Assembly: GCF_000039765.1 (NCBI RefSeq)
Contig: NC_004459.3
Location: 2,421,127 to 2,453,126, forward strand
Direction of reading: 5' to 3'
From: Vibrio vulnificus CMCP6
GTDB lineage: Bacteria; Pseudomonadota; Gammaproteobacteria; Enterobacterales; Vibrionaceae
DNA: 32,000 nucleotides
The notes beneath the pieces were generated by a model that saw only the letters and a list, made by a program, of their open reading frames with translations, ran no database searches and had not been told where the DNA came from. Shown piece by piece: positions 13,617 through 30,693 of this stretch (its first letter is position 1; each line of letters opens with the position of its first letter). A program made the position numbers and the translations under genes.

Positions 13617-13914
13617 ATCTATATGATCTTACTGAAATAATCTCATTGTTTTTTATTAGATTACTGCGCGAATTGAGTTGTGCAAGAGGCAAGGGGGCTT
13701 CCTCCTTGGGAGGAAAAAACAATTCTGCTTACAAATCGTGTAGTTGCTGACAAGAAAAATTTTTTAATCATTGTGATTTAGGTCTAATCGTTTACAATGT
13801 GTCGCTTCAGAGGCTGGTACATCCGTATTTGTACCAAAATCTGTACCAAATTATCCAAATTCACTTATGTTTGATTATTAATACATTGATTTTCAAAGCA
13901 TAATTACTGAACAC

Positions 13915-18692: not shown

Positions 18693-18709
18693 TCTCGAAC
18701 AGCATCACA

Positions 18710-18830: not shown

Positions 18831-19319
18831 TTTGCAAGAGGAAAAACGCAACCATATCGCAAGATCTAGTGTAAAGGCTCAAAGTTGAAATTGTCGTATT
18901 GGCGTTCAATTTCAGTGTTAATTAGCGTGGTAAAAATCCAAAATTGGCATCGTTTCAAGAGTAAATTTGTTCTTTGGTGTTGTGAGTTTTGGGGCCATTG
19001 AGTCGAACTTTTTTGCTTGAAACTCTGCTCTGTGAGTTTGTTGGTGCAAAAGCAGATTTACTCGCTGAAATGACGTTTTCTCTGGTGTGGCAAGTTCACG
19101 TGGTTTCAGTGGCTTTGTTGAAAGTCCGCATTGTGAGATTGGTTTTCCAAAAGCGCTTTTTGGTGTTGTGAGTTCGTTTTCTGCGGCGTTGTTTGTTCCA
19201 CGTGGTTTCATTGAGTAGCCGCTTTGAGACTACGCCTGACTTGAGTGCGTCAAGGTGCGTATGGTTTGTTGTTTGCAAAGTTTAAAATAACGTAAAATCA
19301 ACACTTTGGGTTTGCAAAC
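18831..19319 (+). other. ORF-less cassette, family A copy 1
   Basis: About 490 bp, repeated at 20717-21203 and 28331-28817 with substitutions and 1-nt indels that break every reading frame. Confidence 0.8.
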
Positions 19320-19440
19320 TAACAAACTGTTCAAGAGGGATTCGCAACGCGTGGCATTTTCACTATGCGTTGGTTTTAGTGGTTAAGGTAGCATGCAGCG
19401 GCTTTTGTATTGCGTTGCTCACCCCTTAACAGGGCGTTAG
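19320..19440 (+). repeat. attC 2 (121 bp)
   Basis: TAACAAACTGTTCAAGAGGGATTCGCAACGCGTGGC ... CACCCCTTAACAGGGCGTTAG. Confidence 0.9.
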
Positions 19441-19456
19441 GTTAATCAATGAGGAT

Positions 19457-20110
19457 ATGATGAAAACTGATAAGGTTACGGTCCGGACATTTCAGAATCG
19501 ATACAATACTTACTTAAAACTTTTGCTGGCTCTTCGTAGTGATATGGGTTGGTTTTTTGATGATTCTCATAAAGCAAATATCCTAACAGTCCCATTTATT
19601 CTGACATTGGCAGCAGCACTAGAATGCTCCTTGAATGATCATTTAATTGAGCACTTTGATGATGAGTTTGGTGATAACTCGAAGCAGATGCTTCCGGGGC
19701 TAATGTCAATGAACTTTAAAGGAAAACTCATCAATATAGTGCCAATCTTGACGAAATATAAATTCAAGCTAAATGCCGAGCACAAAGTATATGCACTATT
19801 AGTCGAGTTAATTAAGCTACGTAATAGCCTTGTACATAATAAGAGCGACTATGACTCTCACGAATTCTCGCTACTGAAAGATGATGAAGGGAACGTGCAA
19901 GGGCTACAGTATGATGACTTAGAGTCCTTAATGGGGAAAGAGGTCGATTATACGTTTGGCATAAAAGCAGATGTTGGTGCTATTCATGACGCAGTAGAAA
20001 GGTTCCATGAGTTGTTTTTAGAACATTATCGAGAATCAGACTTCAGTGGTAACGAACTTGTTATTCCGTTAGAAGAGAACAATCGAATCAAAATCGTCGT
20101 AACAGATTAA
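19457..20110 (+). CDS. HEPN-motif protein (candidate RNase toxin / abortive-infection effector), cassette 3
   Basis: 217 aa, predicted all-helical. It contains ELIKLRNSLVHN, matching the HEPN R-x4-H (RNxxxH) signature. GAGGA SD upstream; an alternative ATG lies at 19460. Confidence 0.5.
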   Translation: MMKTDKVTVRTFQNRYNTYLKLLLALRSDMGWFFDDSHKANILTVPFILTLAAALECSLNDHLIEHFDDEFGDNSKQMLPGLMSMNFKGKLINIVPILTKYKFKLNAEHKVYALLVELIKLRNSLVHNKSDYDSHEFSLLKDDEGNVQGLQYDDLESLMGKEVDYTFGIKADVGAIHDAVERFHELFLEHYRESDFSGNELVIPLEENNRIKIVVTD

Positions 20111-20112
20111 CC

Positions 20113-20234
20113 TAACAAGGCGTTCAAGAGGGATTCATGCCGCGTGGCATTTTTGGCATGCGGTCAGTTTTGGTAGTGAAAGTGGCTTGCGGAAGGTTGG
20201 TTTATGCGGCACTCACCCCTTAACGCAGCGTTAT
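20113..20234 (+). repeat. attC 3 (122 bp)
   Basis: TAACAAGGCGTTCAAGAGGGATTCATGCCGCGTGGC ... CACCCCTTAACGCAGCGTTAT. Confidence 0.9.
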
Positions 20235-20362
20235 GCAAATACTCAAATCAGCTGATTTTCCAGTGCTTAGGTCTAGGCTATTGGCGAAAATAAATTGGCT
20301 AACTGCCTACAGCATTCTGGTAAACTGCGACCAAACTAAGCGGTATTATTAGGATCCAAGCG

Positions 20363-20716: not shown

Positions 20717-21203
20717 TTTGCAAGCGGAAAAACGCAGCCATATCTCAATATCTAGTGGTAAAAGCTCAAAGTTGAAGTTGTCGTATCGGCGTTCAATTTC
20801 AGTGTTAATTAGCGTGGTAAAAATCCAAAATTGGCATCGCATCAACGGTTGATTTGTTCTTTGGTGCGGCGACTTTGGGGTTAATTGAGTCGAACTTTTT
20901 TGCTGAAACTCTGCTCGTTGAGTTTGTTGGTACAAAAGCCGATTTATTCGCTGAAATGGCGTTTTCTCTGGTGTGGTAAGTTCACTTGGTTTCAGTGACT
21001 TTGTTGAAAGTCCGCATTATGAGGTTGGTTTTCCAAAAGCGCTTTTTGGTGTTGTGAGTTCGTTTTCTGCGTCGTTGTTTGTTCCACGTGGTTTCATTGA
21101 CTAGCCGCTTTTAGACTACGCCTGACTTAAGTGCGTCAAAGCACATAAAGTTTTGCTCGCAAAGTTTAAAATAACGTAAAATCAACCTTTTGGGTCTGCA
21201 AAC
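20717..21203 (+). other. ORF-less cassette, family A copy 2
   Basis: Co-linear with 18831-19319. The frames of track ORFs on either strand are not conserved between copies. Confidence 0.8.
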
Positions 21204-21324
21204 TAACAAACTGCTCAAGAGGGATTCACAACGCGTGGCATTTTTACTATGCGTTGATTTTAGTGATTAAGGTGGTATGCAGCGGCTTCGGTATTGCGTT
21301 GTTCACCCCTTAGCAGGGCGTTAA
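21204..21324 (+). repeat. attC 5 (121 bp)
   Basis: TAACAAACTGCTCAAGAGGGATTCACAACGCGTGGC ... CACCCCTTAGCAGGGCGTTAA. Confidence 0.9.
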
Positions 21325-21339
21325 ATGCACGAGGAAGTT

Positions 21340-21795
21340 ATGGATAAACCGTTTCAGAGAATAGGCTCAAAATCTAATGCTCATGTAGGTCGTGAGTTCG
21401 AATCTGCAGCATCAAAATTTTTTCTGAGCCAAGGCATAGAACTTGTTCCCAATCTGAAAGTTGAAGTCGGCATTTCAAACTTGAAGAAACAACATGCGTT
21501 CGATCTCGGTTGTATTGATCAAAAGATCATTGTCGAGTGTAAGGCTCATAAATGGACAACAGGTGGTAATGTTCCTAGTGCGAAATTGACTGTTTGGAAT
21601 GAAGCAATGTATTACTTTTATACAGCTCCAGTCGGTTTCAGAAAAATTATGTTTGTCCTTCGTGATTTCAGTACAAAGAGGAACGAGACTTTAGCTCAAT
21701 ATTATGTCCGTACTTATAAGCACTTAATCCCAAATGATGTCGAGCTTTGGGAGTACGATGAGAACACTGAAAGTGCATCGAAACTGTGCATTTAA
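21340..21795 (+). CDS. PD-(D/E)xK-motif protein (candidate restriction-endonuclease-fold nuclease), cassette 6
   Basis: The ordered motif E (GREFESAA) ... D (HAFDLG) ... ExK (IIVECKAHKW) is typical of the PD-(D/E)xK fold. ATG 21340 follows GAGGAA; an in-frame ATG at 21325 abuts the attC. Confidence 0.5.
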   Translation: MDKPFQRIGSKSNAHVGREFESAASKFFLSQGIELVPNLKVEVGISNLKKQHAFDLGCIDQKIIVECKAHKWTTGGNVPSAKLTVWNEAMYYFYTAPVGFRKIMFVLRDFSTKRNETLAQYYVRTYKHLIPNDVELWEYDENTESASKLCI

Positions 21796-21914
21796 CAAAG
21801 CGTTTAAGACGGATTCCCAACGCTTGGCATTTTCGGTTTGCTTTGAATTTAGTGATTACGGCACAATGGTTTAGGTAGGGTGGTAGCGTTGCTCACCACT
21901 TAACGCGGCGTTAT
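21793..21914 (+). repeat. attC 6 (122 bp)
   Basis: TAACAAAGCGTTTAAGACGGATTCCCAACGCTTGGC ... CACCACTTAACGCGGCGTTAT. The stop codon of the upstream ORF is the TAA of the R'' box. Confidence 0.9.
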
Positions 21915-21950: not shown

Positions 21951-22589
21951 ATGTATAAAGTCGGCATTGTTTTGTTTGATGATTTTACAGATGTAGACTT
22001 CTTTCTTATGTATGACTTGCTTGGTCGAACAACTGATAGTTGGACGGTTAGCGTGCTGGGAACTAAATCTGAACACACTTCCCACCTAGGTATGAAAGTC
22101 AAAACGGACGGACCTGTTTCAGAGGTGACGAATCAAGATGTCATTCTCATTACCAGTGGTAAACGTGGTATTCCAGCGGCAATAAACGATACTAAATTTA
22201 TGTCAGCGTTGAATCTTGACCCAAATAAACAGCTAATTGGTTCAATTTGTGCGGGGTCATTCATCCTTCATGAACTCGGTTTACTTAAAGGCAAGCCATT
22301 GACGACAAATCCAGATGCTAAGGCTGTTCTACAAAGCATGGGAGGGGACGTTCAGGACCAACCTCTTGTTGTAGAGGGAAACATAGCTACTGCCGGAGGC
22401 TGTCTTTCACTGATGTATCTAATAGGTTGGTTAGCCGAGCGGCTGTTTGACTCAAATAAACGAAAAAGCATTCAAAATCAGTTGATCCCAGCTGGACAGT
22501 TAGAGCTATTCGAAGAGCTTATTTCTACAACTATCCAATCAGCTGAGTTGGCAAGCTCGCATAACAAAGCGTTTAAGAGTGACTCGTAA
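21951..22589 (+). CDS. DJ-1/PfpI-family (class I glutamine-amidotransferase-like) protein, cassette 7
   Basis: 212 aa with the nucleophile-elbow context LIGSICAGSFIL and an N-terminal KVGIVLFDDFTDVD strand. The last 9 codons read into the attC. Confidence 0.7.
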   Translation: MYKVGIVLFDDFTDVDFFLMYDLLGRTTDSWTVSVLGTKSEHTSHLGMKVKTDGPVSEVTNQDVILITSGKRGIPAAINDTKFMSALNLDPNKQLIGSICAGSFILHELGLLKGKPLTTNPDAKAVLQSMGGDVQDQPLVVEGNIATAGGCLSLMYLIGWLAERLFDSNKRKSIQNQLIPAGQLELFEELISTTIQSAELASSHNKAFKSDS

Positions 22590-22682
22590 CGCGTGGCATT
22601 TATACTGTGCGTTAGTTTTAGTGTTTAAGGCGCAATGCAGAGGCTCCGGCATGGCGTTACTCACACCTTAACGCGGCGTTAT
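22562..22682 (+). repeat. attC 7 (121 bp)
   Basis: TAACAAAGCGTTTAAGAGTGACTCGTAACGCGTGGC ... CACACCTTAACGCGGCGTTAT. Confidence 0.9.
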
Positions 22683-23029
22683 GCTTAATCAATTAAAATC
22701 AGTGGGTTATGGTTTTTCTTTGTTCCCTCAGCTTTTTGGTTTTGTGCTCGTCGGCAAGTTGGCTTAAGTGGGCGCTATTTTCGGACAGTTATTCTTTGGC
22801 GCTGAAAATTCAGAGAATTGCCTCAATCAATTTTTAGGTAAGCGCGAGGTTAGGGTGGCAGGCTCAATCAGCAATTTAATCTTAGGTTTTTGAGTATTAG
22901 CGGCCAAATTTCAATGTCTGATTTTCAAAATCATGAGTCATTTCCGTTTTTAGGTTTTGGCTTTTGTTTGTGAATCAAAGTCGAGTTAATCTTGGTTTTA
23001 TCAAAACGTAAGCCATTGAAGCTTAAGCA
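22683..23029 (+). other. ORF-less cassette, family B copy 1
   Basis: About 350 bp, repeated at 23044-23376, 26451-26798 and 28939-29293. The ATG-initiated frame stops at different points in each copy. Confidence 0.8.
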
Positions 23030-23043
23030 TAACAAAGCGTTTA
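23030..23043 (+). repeat. attC remnant (first 14 nt only, TAACAAAGCGTTTA)
   Basis: An R''/L'' start identical to attC 16, joined directly to nt ~22 of a second family B copy. The rest of the attC is missing. Confidence 0.75.
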
Positions 23044-23376
23044 TCAGTGGTTTATGGTTTTTCTTTGTTCCCTCGGCTTTTCAGTTTTGTGTTTGTCGGC
23101 AAGTTGGTTTCAGTGGGCGCTGTTTTCTGGACACTTATTCTTTGGCGCTGGAAATTCAGAGAATTGCCTCAATCAGTTTTCGCGTAAGCGCGAGGTTAGG
23201 GCAGTTGGCTCAATCAGAAATTTGAACTTGGCTTTTTGAGTTTTAGTCGCCAAATTTCAAAGTCCGATTTTTAAAACTATGAGTCATTTCGGTTTTCTAC
23301 GTTTTGTCTTTTGTTTGTAAATCAAGGTCGAGTTAATCTTGGTTCTATTAAAACGTAACCCATTGAAGCTTAAGCA
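23044..23376 (+). other. ORF-less cassette, family B copy 2 (5'-truncated, fused to copy 1)
   Basis: Begins at TCAGTGGTTTATGG, which is internal in the other copies. Otherwise co-linear with them. Confidence 0.8.
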
Positions 23377-23498
23377 TAACAAGGCGTTCAAGTGGGATTC
23401 ATGCCGCGTGGCATTTTTGGTATGCGGTGGTTTTTGGTGGTGAAAGTGGTTTGCAGAAAGCTGGTTTAAGCGGCATTCACCCCTTAACGCAGCGTTAT
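23377..23498 (+). repeat. attC 8 (122 bp)
   Basis: TAACAAGGCGTTCAAGTGGGATTCATGCCGCGTGGC ... CACCCCTTAACGCAGCGTTAT. Confidence 0.9.
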
Positions 23499-23603
23499 GC
23501 GCTATTCAAATCTTTATTAACTTGGTCGAAAATACTCAAAGTATTCATGATTGTGCTCAGACCAAAAGTTACCATGTTCTTTTTATAAATTGGGGTACGA
23601 TGC

Positions 23604-26323: not shown

Positions 26324-26329
26324 TTCTTC

Positions 26330-26450
26330 TAACAAACTGTTCAAGAGTGATTCGCAACGCGTAGCATTTTTACTATGCGTTGCGTTTGGTGATTAAGGTG
26401 GTATGCGGCGGCATCGGTATTGCGTTGCTCACACCTTAACAGGGCGTTAT
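26330..26450 (+). repeat. attC 12 (121 bp)
   Basis: TAACAAACTGTTCAAGAGTGATTCGCAACGCGTAGC ... CACACCTTAACAGGGCGTTAT. Confidence 0.9.
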
Positions 26451-26798
26451 GCTTAATCACGTAAAATCAGTGGTTTATGGTTTTTCTTTGTTCCCTTGGC
26501 TGATTGGTTTTGTGCTTGTCGGCAAGTCGGTTTCATTGGGCGCTGCTTTTCGGACATTTATTCTTTGGCGCTGAAAATTCAGAGAGTTGCCTCAATCAAT
26601 TTTCAGGTAAGCGCGAGGTTAGGGTAGCTGGCTCAATCAGCAATTTGATCTTAGGTTTTGAGTTTTAGCAGCCGAATTTCAAAGCCCGATTTTCAAAACT
26701 ATGAGTCCTTTCGGTTTTCTACGTTTTGGCTTTTGTTTGTAAATCAAAGTCGAGTTAATCTTGGTTCTAGTAAAACGTAAGCCGTTGAAGCTTAAGCA
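26451..26798 (+). other. ORF-less cassette, family B copy 3
   Basis: Co-linear with 22683-23029 and 28939-29293. Confidence 0.8.
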
Positions 26799-26920
26799 TA
26801 ACAAGGCGTTCAAGAGGGATTCATGCCGCGTGGCATTTTTGGTATGCGGTGAGTTTTGGTGGTGAAAGTGGTCTGCGGAAGGTAGGTTTGAGCGGCATTC
26901 ACCCCTTAACGCAGCGTTAT
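26799..26920 (+). repeat. attC 13 (122 bp)
   Basis: TAACAAGGCGTTCAAGAGGGATTCATGCCGCGTGGC ... CACCCCTTAACGCAGCGTTAT. Confidence 0.9.
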
Positions 26921-26936: not shown

Positions 26937-28241
26937 ATGAGATTATCAATTGAACATCAAGCGACAAGGGTATGTGAAAGTAGTGAATACCTTTTCGGTC
27001 GTGAAGCTTTTGCAAAGAGCTTATTGAATATTTTTTCTAATTCAGAAAGTGGTTTTGTTCTAGCGATTGATGCTACTTGGGGAGCAGGTAAAACAGCTTT
27101 TATTCATCAGTTAATCCACGATCTAAAAGCAACAGAAAAAATTATTCCGATTTACTATGATGCATTTTCCAACGATTTTTCTAATGATACGTTTTTATCT
27201 ATTGGTGCGACTATATTCCATGAAGTCGAAGGCTATTTTGAGTCAACAGGTAAAAGCGTAAAGGTTAAAAAGCAGTTAGAACATCTCAAAGACTTAACAA
27301 AAAAAACCGCAGGAGAGCTGATAAAGTTATCGAGCAATTTAGCCCTTAAATCTTTGACTGCTGGAATGATTGATAACTCAGAATTAGAGAAAATAGCTAT
27401 AAAAACCTTTAATTCGGCGACTTTCGGTACACTAGAACTAGAGTTAAATGAGAAATTCAAAGCATACGAAAATGCTAAATCAAACATCCAATCGTATGTA
27501 GATGCTTTAGAATCAGTTAGCCAAAATGGTGAAAAAGTCATATTTTTCATTGATGAGTTAGATCGATGTCGCCCAGACTTTGCTGTTGAAGTTCTTGAAA
27601 AGGTAAAGCACTTATTTGCTGCTAAGAATGTGATTTTTGTTATTTCTTACAACAAGTCTCAATTGTCAAAGATAATATCTCACGTTTACGGTGTTGAAAA
27701 TAAAGATGCATTGAAGTATCTAGAGAAGTTTATTCATATAGAGGCTAATTTACCAGTTGTTGATGAGAAGTCATCAACAAGCTCTTATGAACAGTTGTTT
27801 GATAGTTTTGTTCGGGAGTTTAATATTGAATTACCAAATCAACAGCAAAGAATTACGTCGCTAAAGAATATGTTTACTTTACTGTGTCAGCCAAAGCACT
27901 TAAATATGAATAGTCGCGAGATCGAAAGGGCGTTTAGTTACGTTAGTTTCTGCTTTGCAGCTCTTCCTAAAGAAAAAGGGTCTTCGCTTTTTGAGTTCTT
28001 TCTACCGGCTGCAATGATGAAAGTAAAAAATAGTGAAATCTTCAATCAGGTATCGGAAGGGCGGTTTTTCTCGACAAGCGCAAACTATAAATGGCTTCAT
28101 GATTTCTTTAAAGAGCACTACAAAAGTTCATTGACTCCCCAAGCGTCGAACGTATTTTATGTAAAGCAGTTTGAAGAAGCGTGTGGCATAGTCTCAATGT
28201 TTAAAATGCCTACTGATGACATCATTGAAGACAAAATATAA
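26937..28241 (+). CDS. KAP-family P-loop NTPase, cassette 14
   Basis: 434 aa with Walker A AIDATWGAGKTAF and the KAP-typical Walker B context VIFFIDELDRCRPDFAVEVLEKVKHLF, then VIFVISYN and YLEKFIHIEANLP. I see no TM insertion between Walker A and B. Confidence 0.75.
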   Translation: MRLSIEHQATRVCESSEYLFGREAFAKSLLNIFSNSESGFVLAIDATWGAGKTAFIHQLIHDLKATEKIIPIYYDAFSNDFSNDTFLSIGATIFHEVEGYFESTGKSVKVKKQLEHLKDLTKKTAGELIKLSSNLALKSLTAGMIDNSELEKIAIKTFNSATFGTLELELNEKFKAYENAKSNIQSYVDALESVSQNGEKVIFFIDELDRCRPDFAVEVLEKVKHLFAAKNVIFVISYNKSQLSKIISHVYGVENKDALKYLEKFIHIEANLPVVDEKSSTSSYEQLFDSFVREFNIELPNQQQRITSLKNMFTLLCQPKHLNMNSREIERAFSYVSFCFAALPKEKGSSLFEFFLPAAMMKVKNSEIFNQVSEGRFFSTSANYKWLHDFFKEHYKSSLTPQASNVFYVKQFEEACGIVSMFKMPTDDIIEDKI

Positions 28242-28330
28242 CAAAGCATTTAAGAGTGATTCGCAACGCTTGGCAGTTTCGCTTCGCTCAAGTATAGCCA
28301 AGCGTCGCTCACACCTTAATGCGGCGTTAG
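28239..28330 (+). repeat. attC 14, short class (92 bp)
   Basis: TAACAAAGCATTTAAGAGTGATTCGCAACGCTTGGC-agtttcgcttcgctcaagtata-GCCAAGCGTCGCTCACACCTTAATGCGGCGTTAG. The ends match the other attCs, but the central region is about 30 bp shorter. Confidence 0.85.
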
Positions 28331-28817
28331 TTTGCAAGAGGAAAAATGCAGCTATATCGCAAGATCTAGTGTAAAGGCTCAAAGTTGAAATTGTCGTATT
28401 GGCGTTCAATTTCAGTGTTAATTAGCGTGGTAAAAATCCAAAATTGGCATCGTTTCAAGGGTAAATTTGTTCTTTGGTGTTGTGAGTTTGGGGTCATTGA
28501 GTCGAACTTTTTTGCTGAAACTCTGCTCTGTGAGTTTGTTGGTACAAAAGCCGATTTACTTGCTGAAAGGATGCTTTCTCAGGTGTGGCAAGTTCACGTG
28601 GTTTCAGTGACTTTGTTGAAAGTCCGCATTGTGAGATTGGTTTTCTAAAAGCGCTTTTTGGTGTTGTGAGTTCGTTTTCTGCGGCGTTGTTTGTTCCACG
28701 TGGTTTCATTGACTAGCCGCTTTGAGACGAAGCCTGACTTAGGTGCATCAAAGCACATAAAGTTTATTGTTCGCAAAGTTTAAAACAACGTAAAATCAAC
28801 CTTTTGGGTCTGCAAAC
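28331..28817 (+). other. ORF-less cassette, family A copy 3
   Basis: Co-linear with 18831-19319 and 20717-21203. Confidence 0.8.
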
Positions 28818-28938
28818 TAACAAACTGCTCAAGAGGGATTCACAACGCGTGGCATTTTTACTATGCGTTGATTTTAGTGATTAAGGTGGTATGCGGCGGC
28901 TTTGGTATTGCGTTGCTCACCCCTTAGCAGGGCGTTAT
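28818..28938 (+). repeat. attC 15 (121 bp)
   Basis: TAACAAACTGCTCAAGAGGGATTCACAACGCGTGGC ... CACCCCTTAGCAGGGCGTTAT. Confidence 0.9.
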
Positions 28939-29293
28939 GCTTAATCACCTAAAATCAGTGGTTTATGGTTTTTCTTTGTTCCCTCGGCTTGTTAGTTTCG
29001 AGTTTGTCGGCAAGTTGGCTTTTTTGAACGCTGCTTTTCGGACACTTATTCTGTGGCGCTGGAAATTCAGAGAATTGCCTCATTCAATTCTCGGGCAAGC
29101 GCGAGGTTGGGGCGGTGGCTCAATCAGAAATCCATTTCTAGGCTTTCAAACTTCAAACTAGATTTGCCAAAATTCCTAACCTGAATATCAAAACTATGAT
29201 TCATTTCAGTTTTCTAAGTTTTGGCTTTTGTTTCTGAATCAAAGTCGAGTTAATCTTGTTCCCAGAAAAACGTAACCCATTGAAGCTTAAGCA
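28939..29293 (+). other. ORF-less cassette, family B copy 4
   Basis: Co-linear with the other B copies but more diverged in its central third. Confidence 0.75.
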
Positions 29294-29415
29294 TAACAAA
29301 GCGTTTAAGTGGGATTTGGCACGCGTGGCATTTTCGGTTTGCGTTGGGTTCGGTGATTAAGTCGCTGTGCGGTAGCTTTTGTATTGCGTGCCTGCACCCC
29401 TTAACGCGGCGTTAG
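29294..29415 (+). repeat. attC 16 (122 bp)
   Basis: TAACAAAGCGTTTAAGTGGGATTTGGCACGCGTGGC ... TGCACCCCTTAACGCGGCGTTAG. Confidence 0.9.
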
Positions 29416-29485: not shown

Positions 29486-29743
29486 ATGAAAGTAGAACTA
29501 GTTACATCACTCAAACGCCAAGCAACAAAGATCCTTGCCGATCTCCACGACACTAAAGAACCAGTGTTAATTACCGAACATGGTAAGCCATCGGCATATC
29601 TGGTTGATGTTGATGATTACGAGTTTATGCAAAATCGTTTAGCGATTCTTGAGGGGATTGCACGAGGTGAACGTGCATTAGCTGACGGTAAAGTGGTGAG
29701 TCACGATGAAGCCAAGGACAAAATGTCAAAATGGCTGAAATAA
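29486..29743 (+). CDS. Phd/YefM-family antitoxin, cassette 17
   Basis: 85 aa. MKVELVTSLKRQATKILADLHDTKEPVLITEHGKPSAYLVDVDDYE is a typical YefM/Phd N-terminal fold sequence. GGAG SD; overlaps the toxin gene by 13 nt. Confidence 0.85.
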   Translation: MKVELVTSLKRQATKILADLHDTKEPVLITEHGKPSAYLVDVDDYEFMQNRLAILEGIARGERALADGKVVSHDEAKDKMSKWLK

Positions 29744-30033
29744 TCTGGACTGAGCCAGCGCTATCCGACCTCAATGATATCGCTGAATACATCGCACTTG
29801 AAAATATCGTAGCTGCAAAACAATTGGTTCAAGCGATCTTTTCTAAAGTCGAGCGCTTAGAGGCTTTCCCTGAATCGGGTCGCATTCCGCCTGAACTAGA
29901 ACATCTAAGTTATCGTGAAGTTGTAGTTAATCCGTGCCGTATTTTCTATAAACAAGACGGCGACAAAGTATTTATTTTGTTTGTTATGCGTGCTGAGAGA
30001 GACTTGCGTAAGTTCCTATTGAGCAAGCAATAA
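29731..30033 (+). CDS. ParE/RelE-superfamily toxin, cassette 17
   Basis: 100 aa. IIWTEPALSDLNDIAEYIA...FPESGRIPPEL...YREVVVNPCRIFYK...VFILFVMRAERD is typical of ParE-type plasmid-stabilisation toxins. Confidence 0.8.
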   Translation: MAEIIWTEPALSDLNDIAEYIALENIVAAKQLVQAIFSKVERLEAFPESGRIPPELEHLSYREVVVNPCRIFYKQDGDKVFILFVMRAERDLRKFLLSKQ

Positions 30034-30601: not shown

Positions 30602-30693
30602 TAACAAAGCATTTAAGAGTGATTCGCAACGCTTGGCAGTTTCGCTTCGCTCAAGTATAGCCAAGCGCCGCTCACACCTTAATGCGGCGTTAT
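30602..30693 (+). repeat. attC 18, short class (92 bp)
   Basis: Differs from attC 14 at only 2 of 92 positions by eye (GCGTCGC vs GCGCCGC, and the terminal base). Confidence 0.85.

Follow-up and report, generated by a model that had tools for sequence, protein, structure and literature searches.

A divergent HEPN-superfamily gene carried as a solo integron cassette in Vibrio vulnificus and its predicted ribonuclease product

A stretch of 32,000 nucleotides (nt) from the genome of Vibrio vulnificus CMCP6 (NC_004459.3, positions 2,421,127 to 2,453,126), referred to below as the window, is of chromosomal origin and carries a sedentary chromosomal integron. The third cassette of this integron encodes a single protein of 217 amino acids (aa), which appears to belong to a branch of the RiboL-PSP-HEPN family (PF18735) so divergent that every curated model misses it. 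The gene is real and is under purifying selection. Its product very probably belongs to the HEPN family, and there is a good chance that it is a catalytic ribonuclease (RNase). Where the Rx4-6H motif is intact, HEPN domains cut RNA independently of metal ions, and such RNases act as toxins in toxin-antitoxin (TA), abortive-infection (Abi), CRISPR (clustered regularly interspaced short palindromic repeats) and restriction-linked systems (Anantharaman et al. 2013, PMC3710099). Taken as a whole, the data are best explained, at slightly better than even chances, by a solo RiboL-PSP-type HEPN RNase cassette that is activated by a trigger, most likely phage infection.

The cassette and its gene

The gene has the hallmarks of an integron cassette, namely a promoterless open reading frame (ORF), a flanking R' core, an attC site of its own, the orientation of the array and an integrase gene. 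The integrase gene, intI, adjoins rpmI and rplT, and an identical copy on another contig (L011) matches the Pfam models Phage_int_SAM_4 and Phage_integrase. From position 18709 onward, an attC repeat of ~127 nt resembling the Vibrio cholerae repeat (VCR-like) occurs in 15-18 copies, 470-2300 nt apart. The first cassette of the array holds an ORF of 74 aa. The second (18833-19441) is the element which an earlier, sequence-only reading of the window had named family A and had placed directly upstream of the gene; it is indeed a real cassette of ~608 nt, with three copies in the window. The identical protein and its neighbours are also carried by GenBank CP037931.1, a replicon of 3.34 Mb.

In the HEPN cassette, a short leader is followed by a single ORF and an attC site. 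Its 5' boundary is set by the R' core of the preceding attC (GTTAGGT, 19436-19442), which lies 21 nt 5' of the ATG, and the boundaries derived from the R' cores (Table 1) are essentially those proposed from the letters alone (19441-20234). The leader measures 19 nt counted from the crossover point between G and TT, and the 16 nt given earlier hold from the start point chosen then. The attC runs from the R'' core ACCTAAC at 20110, which overlaps the TAA stop codon, to the R' core GTTATGC at 20230-20236. Folded as a single strand, its ends pair, with an unremarkable energy.

The ORF, which contains LVELIKLRNSLVHNKS, is the only plausible one of the cassette. The remaining ORFs are 21-48 aa long and lie antisense to it or inside or overlapping the attC region. 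The second ATG (19460) is better spaced from the Shine-Dalgarno-like GAGGA than the first (19457), and one homologue (P0004) starts with a single methionine; ATG 19460 may be the true start codon. The segment LIKLRNSLVHN, with the R-N-x-x-x-H form of the HEPN motif, is present as the sequence-only reading stated, and its placement in the C-terminal half of a helical protein agrees with a motif position at 56% of the length and a mostly helical prediction. The motif alone is weak evidence: Rx4-6H arises in 59% of shuffles of the 217-aa protein and RNxxxH in ~2%. It gains its meaning from the invariance across 139 aligned homologues described below.

The attC sites of close copies differ. For a 91%-identical copy of the gene, positions 2361-2520 of contig L013 were compared with window positions 20110-20236, and the two sequences are unrelated past the shared ACCTAAC core, being VCR-like in the window and not VCR-like in L013. 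This suggests replacement or decay of the attC between hosts.

Family conservation and selection

A search of 5.8 billion proteins yielded 33 homologues with 35-93% identity, and an exhaustive profile search extended the family to 213 clusters at 50% identity, nearly all of ~190-250 aa; a profile search of the 5.8 billion proteins did not extend it further. Conservation was read from an alignment of 139 full-length members, which range from 93% down to ~18-20% identity. Only four columns are invariant in it: E56, R122, N123 and H127. N60 is conserved in 99% of the members, K90 is near-invariant and K129 is retained in 80%, while the RNxxxH motif occurs in essentially all full-length members. 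The segment 84-127 is basic in 96-99% of the sequences, and 79% have an acidic insert following the motif. In comparisons with its three nearest relatives at the DNA level, the gene shows a ratio of nonsynonymous to synonymous substitution rates (dN/dS) of 0.09-0.16.

Outside the cassette arrays of marine and environmental bacteria, the family is hardly found. A scan of genome representatives gave only three loci and a plasmid collection one weak match, in Pseudoalteromonas. No homologue was found in phage records and viral contigs, and the named homologues include no V. cholerae protein.

As for individual members, a 71%-identical homologue is labelled 'phosphatidylinositol kinase' by NCBI and UniRef, which looks like a misannotation. 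The homologue of Desulfobacterium sp. N47 (L008, 4001-4890) looks disrupted, as its frame stops after ~145-195 aa. A C-terminal coding remnant (…GNELIVSINDGDAKYDVNLIIKD, then the stop) reappears ~200 nt downstream, adjoining a CCTAAC core, and this copy is probably a pseudogenised cassette.

Assignment to the HEPN superfamily

Similarity to a curated HEPN family is reached at the level of the family only. Even with E values up to 10 admitted, Pfam, NCBIfam and PADLOC contain no model that matches the 217-aa protein itself, and the PHROGs gave only noise (E 0.04 or weaker). Profile searches with the family profiles A1 and A2 (E ≤ 10) gave no relatives among PDB sequences. Across the 139 members, PF18735 (HEPN_RiboL-PSP) matches weakly in 42, with a best E of 5.4e-7. 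Further HEPN models are matched by fewer members: HEPN_MAE_28990 by 13, HEPN_Swt1 by 8, HepT by 2, and the Cthe_2314 HEPN and HEPN_Apea models by one each, the last with an E of 0.018. These matches extend beyond the motif; for instance, that of P0108 spans residues 49-179, and P0099 is matched by PF18735 over residues 7-140 with 27.7 bits, against a gathering cut-off of 28.4. Neither the 217-aa protein nor any relative at least 40% identical to it reaches this cut-off, and the best E among the closest 33 relatives is 0.0014.

A precomputed annotation as PF18735 exists for three members (P0099, P0182 and P0185), and one source names a truncated homologue (P0028) 'RiboL-PSP-HEPN domain-containing protein'. 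Profile-profile comparison links this part of the family with the cassette protein. The close family profile (A1) and that of the P0099 subgroup (A4, in which three of six members carry PF18735) were aligned by hhalign over 198 columns with a probability of 99.6% and an E of 2.7e-24. Judged by these sequence comparisons, the 217-aa protein is a relative of PF18735 beyond the reach of the model and not a scored member. The proposal of a solo HEPN cassette is supported by family conservation, by PF18735 homology and by the solo contexts described below, but not by a match of the 217-aa protein itself to any HEPN model.

Predicted structure

With the alignment of 139 sequences as input, AlphaFold2 gave a confident model with a pLDDT (predicted local distance difference test) of 90.8 and a pTM (predicted template modelling score) of 0.82. 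Its helices span residues 15-30, 38-83, 87-98, 110-126 and 173-188, the long second one bearing E56 and N60. R122 and N123 end helix 110-126, H127 lies just past it, and an insert of 45 residues precedes helix 173-188. The Rx4-6H motif is accordingly found where core helix 3 ends and the next loop starts. In the published description of HEPN domains (PMC3710099), helix 2 bears a conserved acidic residue, helix 4 is commonly distorted, and insertions often separate helices 2 and 3. The model fits this description. A check of the HEPN fold by AlphaFold and Foldseek had been proposed, and its outcome is mixed: the motif and the helix of E56 are placed as described for HEPN, but Foldseek returned no significant HEPN match, its best PDB matches being the HEPN toxins 7ae6, 7ae8, 8xeh, 7bxo, 4nqf and 1ylm.

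Solo status and genomic neighbourhood

The gene forms a solo cassette in all eight contexts examined. These comprise the window, Vibrio contigs with the 71% homologue, two read-assembled contigs with homologues of 93% and 91% identity, a seawater metagenome contig, a contig of GCA_040961665.1 and a metagenome-assembled genome of Saccharospirillum. Each time, the ATG is preceded at a distance of 13-29 nt by a GTTAG(G/A)(C/T) core, and the stop codon has a YCTAAC core within 0-4 nt. A member of 31% identity sits in unidirectional arrays of small unannotated genes, as is typical of cassette arrays. The absence of an MNT or antitoxin gene, first remarked for the window, extends to the seven other contexts, with one ORF per cassette. 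No neighbour recurs across the contexts, and neither MNT nor any other partner gene was seen among the neighbours.

On several related Vibrio contigs, the gene before that of the 71% homologue encodes a predicted membrane protein of 278 aa. This protein was rejected as a partner because the two genes have an attC R' core between them, the protein has no Pfam match and the window holds no homologue of it.

The close homologues have defence-type neighbours, namely an Mrr-type nuclease (Mrr_cat), a Shedu-like SduA_C protein, an OLD-like ATPase-TOPRIM protein and a RES-domain protein. Moreover, on the Vibrio contigs L001-L005 (e.g., GCA_033344415.1), the 71% homologue lies directly 3' of a type II operon of the cyclic oligonucleotide-based anti-phage signalling system (CBASS) and of the gene for the 278-aa protein. 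The operon encodes a ThiF-like E1, a JAB protein and a 2TM-SAVED effector, and operon and 278-aa gene occupy positions 1-2659 and 2890-3726 of L001. On L005, a Ribonuc_L-PSP fragment of 75 aa is found two genes upstream of the homologue, the only such L-PSP case. The array of the window itself includes an Abi_alpha cassette and a cassette with a KAP-family P-loop NTPase (Table 1). The evidence from the neighbourhood is circumstantial and points to phage defence.

Table 1 Features of the cassette and of the array in the window
Feature	Position	Strand	Basis and remarks
intI, integron integrase, 320 aa	17188-18150	-	ORF; start of the cassette array
attC of the preceding cassette, VCR-like, ~127 nt	19315-19442	+	Repeat families D1, D2, D8
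HEPN cassette, 794 nt, third from intI	19437-20230	+	Boundaries from R' cores
Shine-Dalgarno-like GAGGA	19451-19455	+	1 nt before ATG 19457, 4 nt before ATG 19460
217-aa ORF, divergent RiboL-PSP-type HEPN-superfamily protein, predicted metal-independent RNase	19457-20110	+	ORF and family comparison
E56 codon, in the conserved AALECSLND segment	19622-19624	+	Invariant in 139 sequences; helix 38-83
R122-N123-S-L-V-H127 codons, Rx4H (RNxxxH) motif	19820-19837	+	End of predicted helix 110-126
attC of the HEPN cassette, 127 nt	20110-20236	+	Repeat families D1, D2, D8, D9; core sites
Abi_alpha cassette, 274 aa	25499-26323		Pfam E 3e-53; PADLOC candidate single-gene system PDC-S47, E 1e-63
KAP-family P-loop NTPase cassette, 434 aa	26937-28241		PADLOC PDC-S20, E 1e-72; weaker PifA, QatA
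Two-gene TA cassette, overlapping genes	29486-30033		Phd/YefM antitoxin 85 aa, ParE toxin 100 aa

Comparison with known systems

The nearest curated family is PF18735, with which the protein shares full-length homology, the RNxxxH motif and the conserved helix-2 glutamate; the present branch differs in being cassette-borne and solo. Solo HEPN cassettes as such are already known, having been predicted in 2013 and shown to act in phage defence between 2024 and 2026, and the concept is left unchanged. What is new here is a previously unannotated member of the HEPN family outside PADLOC.

A functional precedent is Esos, a single-gene anti-phage cassette in the chromosomal integron of V. cholerae N16961 (Darracq et al., 10.1101/2024.07.02.601686). 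The standard defence finder misses it, and it has been suggested to cause growth arrest or cell death when the cell is infected. Esos and Taranis are both solo HEPN cassettes with measured anti-phage activity (10.1101/2024.07.02.601686). The likeness of the present gene to Esos lies in their description as solo HEPN integron cassettes. In addition, an AbiU2-HEPN cassette of V. mimicus protects against T4 and T7 (2026 preprint, 10.64898/2026.03.17.712381).

An 'Integron cassette HEPN' family, represented by a Vibrio cassette protein (PDB 3jrt), was listed by Anantharaman et al. 2013 (PMC3710099). It likewise consists of a lone HEPN domain in gammaproteobacterial integron cassettes, with Rx4-6H present. 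However, 3jrt was recovered neither by the PDB sequence profile searches (E ≤ 10) nor among the top 50 Foldseek PDB matches, and because it escaped both sequence and fold search, the 217-aa protein is not assigned to its family.

The HepT toxins of type VII HepT/MNT systems (HEPN-MNT, DUF86; PDB 7ae8, 7bxo and 8xeh) are the best, though weak, structural matches, and their motif is near-identical (RNxLVH). They differ from the cassette protein in their length of about 130-150 aa and in the adjacent MNT nucleotidyltransferase. A HepT-MNT type VII identity was ruled out by the missing MNT gene; the two HepT matches in the family are weak.

Stand-alone Abi HEPN proteins (AbiD/F, AbiJ/Taranis, AbiU2, AbiV and ApeA) offer a further comparison, as the cassette protein would be, like them, a single-polypeptide RNase effector that is silent until infection. 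In contrast to these, it has no recognisable N-terminal sensor domain, and the family has no Pfam or PADLOC match to Abi_2, Abi_C, AbiU2 or ApeA apart from the single HEPN_Apea member.

Proposed function and rival explanations

The cassette is probably a self-contained gene for growth arrest or phage defence. As it is the third cassette from intI, transcription is presumed to come from the Pc promoter of the integron. To the active site, core helix 3 would contribute R122, N123 and H127, located at its end, and helix 2 would contribute E56 and N60; K90 and K129 would complete it. The solved HEPN nucleases suggest, by analogy, that the active form is probably a homodimer whose catalytic cleft is composite. 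Since the cassette encodes no antitoxin and purifying selection maintains the gene close to Pc, the protein must be inert until triggered. Harmlessness at rest could be due to weak expression or to autoinhibition by parts outside the core, candidates being the N-terminus, the insert 128-172, which is mostly acidic, and the C-terminal tail. The basic segment 84-127 and the acidic insert are compatible with an RNA-binding face and, speculatively, with an autoinhibitory lid. Once triggered, the protein would turn toxic by cleaving cellular RNA (tRNA, rRNA or mRNA). The likeliest trigger would be phage infection, leading to growth arrest or abortive infection, although an anti-phage role, taken by itself, has slightly less than an even chance.

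Adjacency in an array is weak as evidence, and the defence-type cassettes are interspersed with others that do not belong to defence (VF530, DJ-1/PfpI). The RNase could instead serve a purpose unrelated to phages, by acting on specific host or cassette transcripts or by inducing dormancy in harsh conditions, as Anantharaman et al. 2013 (PMC3710099) proposed for integron-borne HEPN domains. The near-confinement of the family to marine and environmental arrays, with no phage-encoded relatives found, would suit a role in stress response or RNA processing. Such a role is nonetheless unlikely, given that no regulatory or stress-sensing domain is detectable, that the solo HEPN cassettes tested so far had anti-phage phenotypes and that close homologues lie among nuclease and CBASS defence cassettes. 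The family might also have kept its motif for binding a nucleotide or RNA ligand, or have a fold other than HEPN and another role, without being an active nuclease. Non-catalytic HEPN binders are established (discussed in PMC3710099), and the non-significant Foldseek matches as well as the failure of the protein to match any curated HEPN model would agree with this. Yet non-catalytic HEPN domains typically lose the R/H motif, whereas R, N, H and the helix-2 E are invariant here down to ~20% identity, and the homology to PF18735-annotated proteins is full-length at near-certain hhalign probability; this alternative is very improbable.

A toxin is also conceivable whose antidote is not a neighbouring protein. 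HEPN proteins are often TA toxins, the best Foldseek matches are HepT toxins and integron arrays hold TA cassettes, such as the Phd/YefM-ParE pair of the window. In such an addiction module, the part of the antidote could be played by an RNA from the cassette, antisense or structured (type I or III), by an antitoxin encoded elsewhere or by the intrinsic instability of the toxin, and the module would stabilise the array rather than fight phages. Weak antisense promoter-like sites do exist inside the ORF (20052-20025 and 19762-19733), but promoter-like sites in the cassette show no excess (5 against 5.9 expected from shuffles) and the cassette has no Rfam match, and on these grounds an antisense or RNA antitoxin was rejected. 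Nor does the cassette look like the true TA cassette of the array, with its classical pair of overlapping genes: a second ORF is absent in every context, and no MNT or other partner co-occurs. With its 217 aa and extra segments, the protein is closer to stand-alone Abi-type HEPN than to a minimal HepT of 110-150 aa, a family matched by just 2 of the 139 members. The addiction module is hence given a low probability.

The triggered solo HEPN RNase stays the preferred explanation. A bolder and more tentative form of it sees the gene as the founding example of an integron-restricted clade of RiboL-PSP-type HEPN proteins and as a one-gene anti-phage system outside PADLOC, in which ~215 aa would combine sensor and RNA cleaver while the acidic insert and the C-terminal tail would act as a lid replacing the antitoxin. 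This could be so, but the chances are against it.

Other elements of the array

The three copies of the family A cassette lie at 18833-19441, 20719-21325 and 28333-28939. Most columns are invariant across them (mean column identity 95%), internal sub-repeats are present and single-base indels would disrupt any long ORF. Neither a Pfam model for its longest ORF (97 aa, minus strand) nor an Rfam family for the element was matched. A plus-strand ORF of 43 aa (19087-19218; copy-2 counterpart 20973-21104) is conserved. Family A may be a non-coding or small-peptide cassette.

A second, shorter type of attC (91 nt) is found at 28239-28329 and 30602-30692. These two copies are 99% identical and have a 62%-identical relative at 21793-21883; the rest of the array is VCR-like. 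The small cassettes at 22561-23500, 26329-26920 and 28817-29415 are mutual paralogous repeats (D3, D5 and D10; 60-92% identity) and encode ORFs of ~74-87 aa with no Pfam match. Upstream of the integron, the Vibrio small RNA V_IGR5 is found at 13802-13912 as a full-length Rfam match of 119 bits (gathering score 75).

Conclusion

A family that comprises at least 213 sequence clusters and moves between marine bacteria in the form of cassettes thus escapes the Pfam cut-offs, NCBIfam and PADLOC. If the prediction is true, the cassette described here would add one more compact single-gene RNase to the integron-borne defence cassettes. Furthermore, it would provide the first testable model for the uncharacterised RiboL-PSP-HEPN family, in the form of a protein of 217 aa with four invariant residues to mutate.
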